NCBI GenBank assembly: GCA_038087875.1 | Contig: CM075993.1 | Span: 10,480,001 to 10,544,000 of the forward strand | From: Malacoraja senta | Lineage: Eukaryota | Reading direction: 5' to 3' | DNA length: 64,000 nt | Shown here: positions 38,601 to 44,600 of the stretch, in pieces | Numbering within the stretch: position 1 is the first letter of the stretch | Layout: every line of letters begins with the position of its first letter | The notes under the pieces: model-generated | The model's input: the letters and a program-made list of their open reading frames with translations, nothing else | Told to the model about the DNA's origin: nothing | Database searches by the model: none | Translations under genes and position numbers: made by a program

Positions 38601-41600
38601 CATTTTGCTTTAAGTTATTTATTTGGATTCTTGAAGTTATTTCAAGAAAAGTGGAATGCATTGTGTAGGAAGGAACTGCAGGTGCTGGTTGACACCAAAG
38701 ATAGACACAAAATGCTGGAGTAACTCAGTGGGACAAGCAGCATCTCTGCAGAGAAGAAATGGGTGACGTTTCTGGTTGAGACGAGTTTGAAAAAGGGTCT
38801 CCACCCGAAACATCACCCATTCCTTCTCTCCAGAGATGCTGCCTGTCCTGCTGAGTTACTCTGGCATTGTATGTCTATCTTGAGTGGAAGGCAATGGTGG
38901 ATATGTAAACTATGAATAAACTTTATACTCGACTCCAGTTGATTTTACTAGTGTGATGATTTAACTAATTTTTAGTGCTAACCAGTCAGCAGAAAGACAA
39001 TACAAGCAATCCATTTACAGTGTGTAGTTACATGATAAAGGAATAATGTTTAATAGTAAGATTAAACGAGAACTTACCTAAGTTTGAAGTTTGATCTTTA
39101 TTTTATGAGGAGTTACGTTGGTGATTACGTGAAGAACCCCGCCAGTGCGCCTGCACGTCAATCTTCAAAGCAGCGGTGTGAAATCACAAAAAACAACAAG
39201 CGAAGTAATATAGTATCATAATAAAACGATTAATACAAGAACTTCCATCTGACCTTTATGATAGAGGGTTGGGCCGTGGTGGGCACGTAATCACCAACGT
39301 AACTCCTCATAAAATAAAGATCAAACTTCAAACTTAGGTAAGTTCTCGTTTAATCTTACTATTTTACTTCGGAGTCACGTGAGTGACTACGTGAAGATTT
39401 TAAAGCTTTGTGATTTCATGCCGCAGACAAATCCCGGCTTCTCACTGCATTGATTGACTCGGAACGAGAAATAATCAATAATGCATTAATAATAACATTT
39501 GCCTGACAAATGCAGTAATTCATTTATTTGAATAAAAGAATTAACAGTATCCCCTTTAACCCAGGGAAATTTAAGCAGAACTTAATATAGTATCTGCAAA
39601 CAGCCCCGTATTGGCAATAGGCCGATGGTAAAAGTGTTGAAACACCAACTTATTGGATCACCCGGCGGCTGTGAAAATAAGGTCGACGGGACGTCCTTCG
39701 CCCTGGTCGTCAATATTGCTGCTAAACTGAATGGAATGTAAAACCATCAATGTTCACACCTACAGCAACCAAAACTTGTTTTTAACCATCTTAAAATAGT
39801 CTGAACTGACACTATCTTGTATGTTTTTTCGCGAATGATAAACAATCTTGTTTTCATATTTCATAAGACCTTTGTAGCCTCAATGTATTGCAACAAATAT
39901 GTCATAACATATAGATATGGATCCATAGAATATGCTAATAAACACTCTTGAATCTTATCACACCTGATCCTACTTAATTTGAGTAGGTCATCAAATGTAA
40001 AACATAACATAATCCTGAGGTACTTCTGTGAATCTGTAACTTTGTAATGTTACAAGTGCCATAAACATGAGTACCTTCATGCTGAACTTGGCCAAATCAG
40101 AATCGTACCAAGACTCCTTTGCTGAAGTAGCTTAAAACAATTCTATATTCCAGATTCCTTCCTAGTTTTAGGTGGTCTGGAATTAAAATTCCTTTCATTA
40201 ATCTGGAAATAAAAGAACGAGACTCAACAGGATGTCTTTCCAACCTCATCAAATAAAACCGAGGAATAATATACTTCTGTGTGAATAAATCGCACTATAC
40301 CTCAACCCATTAAATAGAGGTCAATCCAAGATATTTGAGACATGTGCCGTACAACATTCCATATTCTTTTATACACAGAAATTTTTTCCCCTCATTCTTT
40401 ACCTAATGGGAAAGCAGTATTTACAGAGTCACAACTCAGATTCCCAAATGTACTGCTTTTGAGTACTCTTCCGCCAGACTGCTGTAAGCATGTCCACAGC
40501 ATGCCCAGACAATCCTCTTTTTTAAATCCTGCATCCATACAGGCATATGACGGATGTTACTCTCCAATTATCGAATACACCAGTAACTTCCTTCTTTTGG
40601 GAACATTTATCAGAAACTGTGTCATAAATTTCAATATCAAAGGGAACCATGGCTGCGTAGACTCGTCTGGTACCACAAATACCCCAGAGGCAGCATACTG
40701 CTTCGTTTTAAGCAGACCGATTTATGAGACAGGATGAAGTAAAATGCATATAACAACGTATCATCCTAATATAGCGAGAAACATCCATTGCTACTGTCTC
40801 CCGATGTAGTCCCATAACACATATCTCTGTAACTGGTGATTGAGTCTGGATGGAAACAAGTCATATCTGGCTTCCCAAATCTGACTATTATATCATTAAA
40901 AAATCTTAAGGTTAAACATCCATTCTTTGTTATCATGGAAATTCCACCAATACAATTAATACATGCCATTGCTGTAGTGTTGTTAATTTGAAACTGAACA
41001 TGCAGATTAGTTGTATTTAACAACAAGCTTGTAGCTCATAAGCCTTCCAATAGACTTTAAAACGTCGATTCTCCATGTCTGTAAAATAATACTTCTTCCA
41101 TATTCCATCTGTCCACAGATGGATACCTTTTCAGTGGCACCAATCCTAGTACACTGATATCAGTCTGTTAAGACCATGGAAGGCTGTTCAATCCGTATCT
41201 TGCTTGAACTACTGACGACATGTTAAATCCACTATTGCAATCAGAAGCAGCATTTGTTGTTTAATTGCATGGCCTATCAAAAAATGGCCATCATGCATCT
41301 TAGTGTTTTTTCTTTTTGCAGTCTGCAGCTGCTGGTAGTCCAATGGCCCATATTGTATTGCTGGAAATAACACTAATTCTCCTAACAAGCTGGCCACCTG
41401 TCTTAATTGAAGATTGTTGCTTTTCCAACTGCTTAATACAACCATCAATTAGCTTTACCCTTTACCCTGGGTAAATTACTACCTTTTCAATTGAATCAAA
41501 TAATCAATTGTTGTAAGTATCGTTAACTTAATTTCTCTCTGGATGAATTAAACCCAACTTTTAAAAGTGGTTTGAATAATTTGAGAGAGATAACTCACGA

Positions 41601-44600
41601 ATTCTCTTGTTCGTCCTAATTAGGACATCATCCAGTTAAATCCAGTTAAGCCATCCACATCTGTCCTTGGCCTCTAATTAGCCGCAAAATTGGTTTTACC
41701 AATTTAGTGAATTTCTAGGGACTGAAGTCAACCATTAGACAGAACTTTGAATTGCCATAATTGTTCCTTTAGATAATTTTATCTTATAAATGAACAAACA
41801 TTAAGTAATATACATCTTTCAGATCTATGTGCCATAAAACATCTTTTTTGAAATAATTTGTTTGGCAGTCTCAAAATCTCTATTTTGAAGTGTCTATACT
41901 TCACAAAATTTTTAAAGACTTGTCAGATCTGAAATACTCCTCACCTTTTTAGGTTGAGAAATTTTAAACACAATTTGGTGGTTTTGATAAACCGACCTTT
42001 CAATTACTTGTTTATAAACAAGTTTTCAATTCAGCTTGAACCTCCATCAATTATTTTTATGTGAAATTGGAGTGTTCTGCTTGGAACATGCTGGATGGCA
42101 AATCAGTATTTGAATCAAATCAATTAGAAACCTTTCTATAATACTCAGAATAATAACTGAAGTAATTTGCTTCCAATATTTGGCTGTTTTTGCCTTAATA
42201 TGTTCCCATAAGAACCAGGTCCACCTACCTCCTTTGTCATCTGAGTGACCTGTGGTCCCTGGCTCCTGGCAGGCAAAACCCATGCTTTTTCGTTTTCCTG
42301 CTGCAGGACATCAACTGAGTACCTGCTTCAATGGTCGATTTGCTCCTGATGTCGGTCCAGGATTTTGTATGATGTCTGAAAGGATACGTCCTCTTTGCAG
42401 ACTTGACGACCATTGATGTTGTGATCAACTTTGCTGTTTTTGCCTCATTATCCAACTCTTTCCCACGATTCATGAGGTTTTTTCTCTGAAGAATAAGTTG
42501 AATGACTGCACATTGCTGGGCTTTACAGAGTTGCTGCAACTTTGGGTTGATGTTGGACCGAATGGCATACTTCCTGAAACAATTCATCTCGAAGTGGGCG
42601 CTACATAGCAACCTTAGTGCCACTTGATGCATCTCCATCCATGGCCTCCATCCATTGTTTTGCAAATTGCAGTTGTTCATCAACCGAGCAGTTTCAATAT
42701 TCTCTGCAGTTTACTTTCCTTAGGCTTACATGCCTTCGCCCATCTGACCCCTTTATCTTGGTTCACTGCTAGTACTTTCAGCAATACGCAGTTCCTTGGG
42801 ATCTCGTGCTTTTTTGGCATTTTCATCCATCGTAAACTACTAGAGCTGATGGTAGACACAATAGTTGATCACAGAGACCACGTCCTTTCCAGTGGCTCTC
42901 TTGACTCTGATGGGGCAGCGAATCGTACTACCAGGAATAAAACATCTGGCAGCTGCCGTCTTCGCTTGTATCGGCCTCACCGTCAGACTCAGGGTCAGAA
43001 CTCTCACAGAGCAGCAAATCGTACTGCCAGGAATAGCCCATCTGGCAGCTGCCGTCTTCGCTTATTTTGGAAACTCTGCTGACCCTGTGCACGCGGCTCA
43101 TCAATGAGGGTGCTATCAAGCAGCCCTATACTAGGTGCTGCTGACCTGGCTTCTGGAGCCTGGTTCTGACATCACTCCTCCTGGAGTATGTTTCGTTGGA
43201 GCAACCTGTGTACAGGTTCTCCATTTGGAATATCCACTTCAGAAAGTGGTATCCAACCTTGGAGGTGAATCCTAACTGACTCTTGCTCCATGACCCTGAC
43301 TTGTATGGTGCCTAGCACCCAACTGACGCTGGCTCCGTTCTTTAATGCACAAGTCCACAGTTCTCCCCGCTCCCAGCTGGCGACTGTTGTAGGGTATGAG
43401 GCAGTCCTTTACCGACCGCATTCCTGCAGCTTTTTATCGGCTTTGCCTTGCCCCACTGGTGCTGACTAAATTCCCTTCAGCCCCAATATCCACAGTCGCT
43501 ATGCTGTCGACTGTACCGTGGTCAGAGGCGGCTGGTCGCCGACCGCAATATTGCGACTTTATACCGGCTGTGCCGCTCGCCTCCTCCACTTGCCCGTTTT
43601 TTCCATGATGCCTGTGGAAAAATCCCCACAGACCCACAGCAAACGGACACAAAAATACTTGGAAAAAGTTTATACTTACCTTGTAGTTGAAAACTACAAT
43701 TCCACTAGAGGAGCTCTGCTCCTCGCGTCCGTTTGCGCCAATGCGTCTGACGTAAAGACGCGCAGGCGCACTTCACGTAGTCACTCACGTGACTCCGAAG
43801 TAAAATGCAAGGTAAAGCCAGCAAAGTCTGGTCAAGGATAGTCTGAGGGACATCAAAAAGGTAGATGGTTGTTTCGCACTGCTCTTTGGTTGTGGCAGGA
43901 TGATTCTGTTGCCTGGGAAGAAACTCCCTGAATCTGGTGGTGTGTGTGTGTTTTCACACTTCTATACCTTTTGCCCGATGGGACATGATCCTGACATGAC
44001 ACGTGTACACAATTTAATGGTGATAAAACTAGTGCCTATTGAAATTAAATGCATGTGCGATTCAGAACTGTCTTTTAACTTCCTTTATACCAAACATTCA
44101 ATAGGTAAAATAGTACACCATAAATATTTCAAATATAAATTAAGTTCTGAAAATTGTAAGCTTGTTTACTCAATGGTTCATGGTCCTTTATTGTCACGTG
44201 TACCATTTAAGGTACAATGAAATTTGATTTACCAACAGTCATACCAGAAAAAAGCAACAAGACACACAACTACATAAAAGTTAACATAAACATCCACCAC
44301 AACGGCTCCCCCAAATTCCTCACTGTGATGGAAGGCAATAAAGTCCAATCTTCTTTCCTCCTTATTCCCCCACGGACGGGGCAGTCAAACCATCCGCAGT
44401 CGGGGCGATCGAAGCTCCCATGTCGGGGTGGCCGAAGCTCCTGAAGCTAGGAGCACCCGAAGTCGGTCCCCAACCAAGGGACTGTGAGGTCGATCCCTGC
44501 CAAAGGACCGCCAGCTCTACAATGTTAAGTCTGCAGGCTTCCAAGGTTGGAGCTCCGAAAGTCGATCCCCAGCAAGAGGCCGCCAGCTCCTCGATGTTAT

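Follow-up and report, generated by a model that had tools for sequence, protein, structure and literature searches.

The 64,000-nucleotide window analysed here (contig CM075993.1, positions 10,480,001 to 10,544,000) carries a whole DIRS1-like retrotransposon of 4,755 nt on the minus strand (39052-43806), in which the terminal sequences are flawless and the genes are ruined. We consider it quite probable that the element belongs to a multi-copy, non-autonomous DIRS1-like lineage, which has decayed at full length and is moved in trans. The data directly demonstrate the architecture, a clean 3-nt junction, the extent of the decay and a decayed interior common to many copies in organism E, the source of the public sequencing run X16.

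The limits of the element are given by matches of its ends to the internal complementary region (ICR) and by an empty-site joint connecting 39051 to 43804 in run X16. On the minus strand, the 5' terminus (43771-43806, 36 nt) is complementary to one half of the ICR and the 3' terminus (39052-39131, 80 nt including a right extension of 57 nt) to the other, and the two halves of the ICR (39284-39396) share a 3-nt circular junction at 39361-39363. Direct alignment reproduced the perfect matches claimed by the initial annotation: none of the 80 positions mismatch between 39052-39131 and 39284-39363, and none of the 36 between 43771-43806 and 39361-39396, both matches stopping at these limits on either side without further extension. 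As the two halves overlap by 3 nt, there are 113 distinct end/ICR pairs. The 80-nt arms, 152 nt apart, form a perfect 80-bp stem (fold z = -17.8), and the 36-nt arm is located 4,374 nt from its ICR partner. The inverted terminal repeats (ITRs), both with approximate inner limits, were delineated from the inverted pairs I10 and I21 and alignment A1 at 43745-43806 (left) and 39109-39163 (right). They are non-identical (85% in I10, 94% in I21, about 66-85% alike overall), and the right extension (39052-39108) lacks a counterpart in the left repeat. The first and last triplet of the element, on the sense strand, is ATT, in agreement with the NTT that is demanded of the DIRS1-like superfamily and of which ATT is the commonest form in the definition by Piednoel et al. 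2011 (PMC3266345; this and the other papers cited by PMC number are used from partial text). Relics of reverse transcriptase (RT), RNase H, methyltransferase and finally tyrosine recombinase (YR) follow one another on the minus strand, all co-oriented. By structural criteria the element is DIRS1-like and lacks only autonomy, which would call for uninterrupted RT and YR frames and for YL/IDD and HSTR-type motifs that are intact; both motifs are broken here. The observed/expected CpG ratio is 1.4-1.7 in the ends and the ICR vs 0.25-0.28 in the RT and RNase H relics, with counts so small that no conclusion rests on them.

The element cleanly interrupts a host repeat, since the left (38882-39051) and right (43807-43983) halves, which align to 46793-46994 and 47011-47211, respectively, are in register with an uninterrupted paralogue at 46793-47211 that displays the empty-site arrangement. 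The empty-site joint was present in six contigs of run X16 (depth 1,232, with 3 letters fitting both sides) and also in runs X4 and X11. Joint and paralogue agree that the target holds the terminal 3 nt once, without a longer duplication, and this footprint is as expected for recombinase integration at a 3-nt core.

The coding relics were delineated by homology. With one frame as query, phmmer returned 222 proteins at E <= 0.001, and eight scanned members of the 150 best matches, which were listed, contain RVT_1, Dam-like, integrase SAM-like and phage integrase domains in varying sets. Profiles built from 49 pol and 14 YR segments were then aligned to the DNA using a frameshift-aware aligner. 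The RT relic (41530-42175) is matched in three frames by the profile of the 49 DIRS-type pol proteins, which carry RVT_1, and is followed on the minus strand by an RNase H relic (40934-41430) that has lost its last 42 codons at about 40943. The adenine methyltransferase (Dam-like) relic at 40581-40941 is the best stretch in most of the 150 listed phmmer matches (iE 2.6e-15; Dam/PCIF1 in relatives), and the YR relic, placed by profile alignment, occupies 39580-40516, with Phage_int_SAM_1 and Phage_integrase domains in its relatives. In the gag-like position upstream of RT, the ORF list points to a putative ORF1 relic with approximate limits (42200-43610, minus strand), where the longest stop-free sense-strand frame has 157 codons (42237-42710) in about 1.4 kb of broken frames at the expected place. 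ORF1 also includes a diverged 96-nt tandem duplication (42904-43095; family D1, 83% over 71 nt, 65/96 ungapped). The homologue searches, including Atlas and Pfam, recovered no homologue against which the lesions of ORF1 could be mapped. Pfam likewise gave no match on three raw frames of the element, a result of the frameshifts. Within the window, neither BLASTN of the element nor the profiles detected a second copy.

At a frameshift penalty of 10, the pol relic (42023-40581) exhibits 22 frameshifts, 10 stops and a 42-codon (126-nt) deletion in RNase H, and the YR relic (40516-39580) 9 frameshifts and 6 stops. Together this amounts to 31 called frameshifts, 16 stops and the deletion in 2.4 kb (47 called lesions), bearing out the earlier description of genes riddled with stops and frameshifts. 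Shifting the penalty from 14 to 8 changes the frameshift count from 11 to 23 in pol and from 3 to 12 in YR (14-35 in sum). The alignment scores are 146 (pol) and 124 (YR), whereas neither the wrong strand nor any of 15 shuffles per relic exceeds 21; 16 intact proteins held out as controls produced no false call. At the level of motifs, the RT YLDD is indeed broken by a stop (*LDD at 41638) and by a tandem duplication previously described as about 10 bp at 41631-41649, which resolves as 10 nt repeated exactly at 41630-41649. The YR motif likewise reads HSV* (39733-39722), as originally noted. Its stop is the product of a 1-nt loss at about 39723 rather than of a nonsense substitution, the HSxR motif hence being frameshifted, and the conserved Arg (39861) and Trp (39658) columns of YR are occupied by stops. 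The lesion density reaches 13 frameshifts and 6.7 stops per kb, as compared to about one frameshift per kb from 1.3% simulated neutral change. The alignment scores fit about 15% neutral decay, and the highly conserved columns retained (64/102 in pol and 44/68 in YR vs 83% and 77% in intact members) suggest a decay nearer 8-11%, so that the coding sequence appears to have undergone roughly 10-15% neutral change.

This decay can be set against the ends. Zero differences in 113 end/ICR pairs limit the divergence to at most 1.3% per arm (95%), and the chance of such an outcome under 8-15% decay after insertion is 6.5e-9 to 1e-16. The argument rests on the model of Cappello and colleagues, in which the ends are rebuilt on the ICR at each cycle and which is backed by the ICR being essential (PMC7192593, PMC5633606). 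Perfect ends and 10-15% interior decay suggest that the decay precedes the insertion. Insertion was proposed from the outset to be recent, which stands relative to the interior decay. It does not stand as an absolute age: at the epaulette shark mutation rate of 7e-10 per generation (PMC10587355), the 1.3% bound corresponds to as many as about 19 million generations, provided that the host is a cartilaginous fish, as may be suggested by flanking repeats that look like those of skates and rays. The insertion could therefore be millions of generations old.

Public sequencing runs provide a second line of evidence. Seventeen runs, none of them on record as RNA, matched sampled words of the element, among them X16 and X17 from organism E and X4, X5 and X11 from organisms A, B and D, respectively; contigs of X16, X4, X5 and X11 were aligned to the window at 80% likeness, keeping in mind that E may not be the host species. 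The share of sampled 31-mers exactly present in X16 and X17 is 0.54, as compared to the 0.4-7.5% expected if the decay were private, and the share of 0.06-0.07 in the other 15 runs is by itself no evidence. X16 covers 30 of 30 bins, with summed depths of 44,000-267,000 in the interior. The median at 42 single places is 50,000, translating to roughly 360-1,400 copies, a rough figure that takes a single copy to give a depth of about 35 and allows for an overlap factor of 1-4, summed depth not being copy number. Across 5,511 places, flanks included, X16 differs from the window at only 172 (at least 20% of the depth), where private decay of 8-15% predicts 350-650 differing places in the interior alone. 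Furthermore, the YR stop at 39658 is found in 71% of the X16 depth, a frameshift near 40715 in 65% and another near 41910 in 51%. Thus, the decay is mostly inherited rather than private to the window copy, and the initial expectation of many high-identity copies with the same lesions finds indirect support through contig depth rather than assembled copies, as does the view that decay is older than insertion and that a dead full-length template has been copied. Judged from these contigs, the decay of a typical E copy resembles that of the window copy. In the five interior indel rows among those listed, the other form constitutes 21-49% and in none comes near 100%; the intermediate lesion shares suggest successive source copies adding lesions. 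In the same run, minor variants at 40385-40446 and 42462-42505 have 40-60 nt replaced by a few other letters, representing further structural sub-lineages.

The ends tell of a wider population. In X16 their depth exceeds the interior median by a factor of 5-30 (744,000 at 39079), and in X4, X5 and X11 they reach 158,000-422,000 at 39079 with interior bins below 9,000. These three runs contain mainly ends and flank repeats, the missing interior cover not being taken as absence. With ends far deeper than the interior in four of four runs, other elements have the same ends, and the depths suggest one to ten thousand such elements per genome. Across 39052-39396 and 43771-43806, contigs of X4, X5 and X11 exhibit near-identical, very deep DIRS ends with different sequence inside (loose ends at 39298 and 39397); the members of this large end-sharing group could either be shortened derivatives or belong to divergent families. 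In all four runs, a 2-nt indel in the end (39079) is mirrored by one in the ICR (39335), as templating predicts. Minor letters in X16 (under 1% to 10%; for example 3-4% at 40216 and 40218) are the letters fixed in the A and B copies, and those at 40216 and 40218 fit the YR profile better. Moreover, 12 of 18 listed aligned-codon rows, a biased sample in which E keeps the window letter in at least 90% and another organism differs, are synonymous, in line with separate lineages that may once have been under selection for protein. Taken together, these traces may hint at an autonomous partner with compatible ends.

The preferred explanation is then as follows. An ordinary autonomous element would have lost its coding function and kept its full length and its cis signals. 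Stops, frameshifts and the deletion may have accumulated across successive source copies while copying continued. A source copy would be transcribed, with gag, RT/RNase H and YR supplied in trans by an intact DIRS with compatible ends. The cDNA ends would be rebuilt on the ICR, resetting end/ICR identity at every cycle, and YR would finally recombine the circle into a matching 3-nt target.

Several points weigh against this explanation. Word-based homologue searches found no intact close relative (150, 11 and 189 candidates, none passing), and the best phmmer matches among the 150 listed are distant; six of these proteins checked by name include one clam and one springtail and no close fish relative. 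The estimate of decay is sensitive to the indel:substitution ratio, taken as 0.1, and to the profiles used being distant ones. The evidence from X16 consists of the summed depth of short contigs, from which rare variants are dropped, without an assembled second copy, and the rows available represent 40 of 253 substitutions, 12 of 27 indels and 15 of 219 joints. Only three of the 47 called lesions are individually readable, and contigs may be clipped at indels. Finally, 10 of the 40 listed substitution rows have 99.5-100% of another letter in X16, and at 1-2% private change the chance of zero end mismatches would be 0.10-0.01. Because of this low chance, some of the window copy's own letters were probably acquired either by the source lineage or in a species different from E. 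Their lack in X16 does not mean that the copy is absent there, as contigs drop rare variants. The window copy's own changes in aligned codons are all non-synonymous (7/7).

The main remaining rival is DNA-level multiplication of a dead copy, through segmental or tandem duplication or carriage in a larger repeat, instead of retrotransposition; the shared lesions would then carry no information on mobilisation in trans. Such a process is compatible with the short X16 pieces, which leave the flanks of other E copies outside the view, and with the location of the element inside a high-copy host repeat. The site, however, shows both an empty form and a clean junction of the recombinase type around a 3-nt core, and all four runs are deep over the flanks, whereas only X16 is deep over the interior. 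Duplication would, in addition, not reset the end/ICR identity after 10-15% decay, and we regard it as unlikely. An old intact insertion that decayed in place could alternatively have had its ends homogenised to the ICR, either by gene conversion, as had been recognised initially, or by template switching between the inverted repeats. The proximity of the 80-nt arms and their very stable hairpin make this conceivable for one end, and some window letters are found in no X16 contig (10 of 40 listed rows). Nevertheless, the distant 36-nt arm is equally perfect, the X16 pool departs from the interior at 172 places at most, fewer than the 350-650 expected, and three lesions are in the majority of the depth. 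The proposal is thereby largely refuted, and we assign it a very low probability.

Equally improbable to us is a single old and finished burst from one dead source within a mixed E pool, without a continuing dead-source lineage. Contig identity classes in X16 extend below 90% (5,122 of 43,432, flanks included) and the absolute age is poorly bounded, both of which would suit a burst, but the shares of lesions and other letters range over 21-82% instead of clustering near 0 or 100%, pointing to several successive sources. Proteins in trans would moreover still be required, so that a burst differs from the continuing trans-mobilised lineage only in duration. The possibility that the frameshifts are assembly errors in an intact young element, also raised in the initial annotation, is next to negligible. 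It can draw on 21 of the 31 called frameshifts being losses of 1-2 nt, yet only 8 of the 31 are near a homopolymer of at least 4 (background 19%), and substitution stops, the 126-nt deletion and the 10-nt duplication are also present. The lesions recur in an independent public run, and a LINE in the same window keeps open frames of 350 and 578 codons.

Other repeats populate the window. The LINE pol (2175-4954, plus strand), with endonuclease and RVT_1, is well preserved with one break near 3220 between its two frames, and resembles what we take to be the CR1/L2 type. The frames at 62273-63249 (plus strand) and 17398-17880 (minus strand), for which Pfam gave no match, have motifs presumably akin to a Penelope-type RT end and a GIY-YIG endonuclease. 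A very abundant family of palindromic short repeats, with arms often nested, is present at 38660-38886 and some 40 other places (for example 31918-32124, 37258-37465 and 60498-60695). A 430-nt MITE-like element (37779-38206) possesses terminal inverted repeats of 27-33 nt, the left end occurring twice, 77 nt apart. Lastly, a short-period tandem repeat at 52733-53203 yields long low-complexity open frames.

In its structure the element is congruent with DIRS1-like elements (PMC3266345) and Xenopus families (PMC9210276), sharing non-identical ITRs, a two-part ICR with a 3-bp junction, the right extension, ATT ends and the order ORF1-RT-RH-MT-YR (ORF1 here being putative), and its 4,755 nt fall within the 4.1-6.2 kb of the Xenopus DIRS-like families (PMC9210276). 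It departs from these in that every coding domain is ruined and that the ruin is common to many copies. Non-autonomous families are mentioned nowhere in the accessible part of PMC3266345. For X. tropicalis, 36 of 75 consensus families are described with some degeneration and, in the portion of PMC9210276 at hand, are not treated as mobilised in trans; these degenerate families may include similar cases. The Dictyostelium discoideum DIRS-1 (PMC7192593) likewise needs its ICR to finish retrotransposition and has a trinucleotide at both ends after integration, and its RT, probably with the other proteins, acts in trans, the same mechanism as proposed here. In contrast, DIRS-1 is autonomous, its trans action was demonstrated with engineered constructs, and its left repeat is for the most part rebuilt from the right one (PMC7192593), whereas the repeats here show only the limited likeness described above.

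Non-autonomous retroelements are already known, TOC1 of the DIRS order among them, and the element is consequently a variant and not a new class. TOC1, from the alga Chlamydomonas reinhardtii and thus of a different host group, has split direct repeats rather than ITRs plus an ICR. Like the present element, it is a naturally occurring non-autonomous retrotransposon of the DIRS order whose copy number varies (PMC9940879). Dasheng of rice and SNRE of soybean are similarly large retroelements amplified by the enzymes of an end-sharing autonomous partner (PMC3701649). These are integrase-based LTR elements of plants, different from the recombinase- and ICR-dependent element here, in which every original gene is kept as a relic. 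Judged by titles and the openings of abstracts, with partial coverage that includes few subscription journals or Repbase reports, no description of a full-length, gene-decayed, trans-mobilised DIRS1-like family came to light, and the available parts of PMC8498967, PMC3783388 and PMC8969392 contain nothing on such families.

The element would provide natural genomic support, from a vertebrate, for two points that have so far come from Dictyostelium constructs, namely that the ICR resets the ends and that DIRS proteins work in trans. The route to non-autonomy would here be decay at full length and not deletion, which surveys based on open reading frames would miss or call old debris. Identity between end and ICR represents a dating tool for DIRS insertions, with a clock that is coarse at 113 pairs. 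More tentatively, and with somewhat less than even confidence, we envisage a commons in this fish group: thousands of DIRS1-like elements of several lineages may use one set of end signals, with helpers having little preference for their own RNA. Full-length lineages could then lose all genes and still amplify for very long, gathering lesions in a ratchet-like manner and possibly outnumbering the working elements, while rewriting from the ICR keeps the ends compatible. If this holds true, each copy would carry two clocks, the end/ICR divergence recording its insertion and the interior decay the age of its parasitic lineage.

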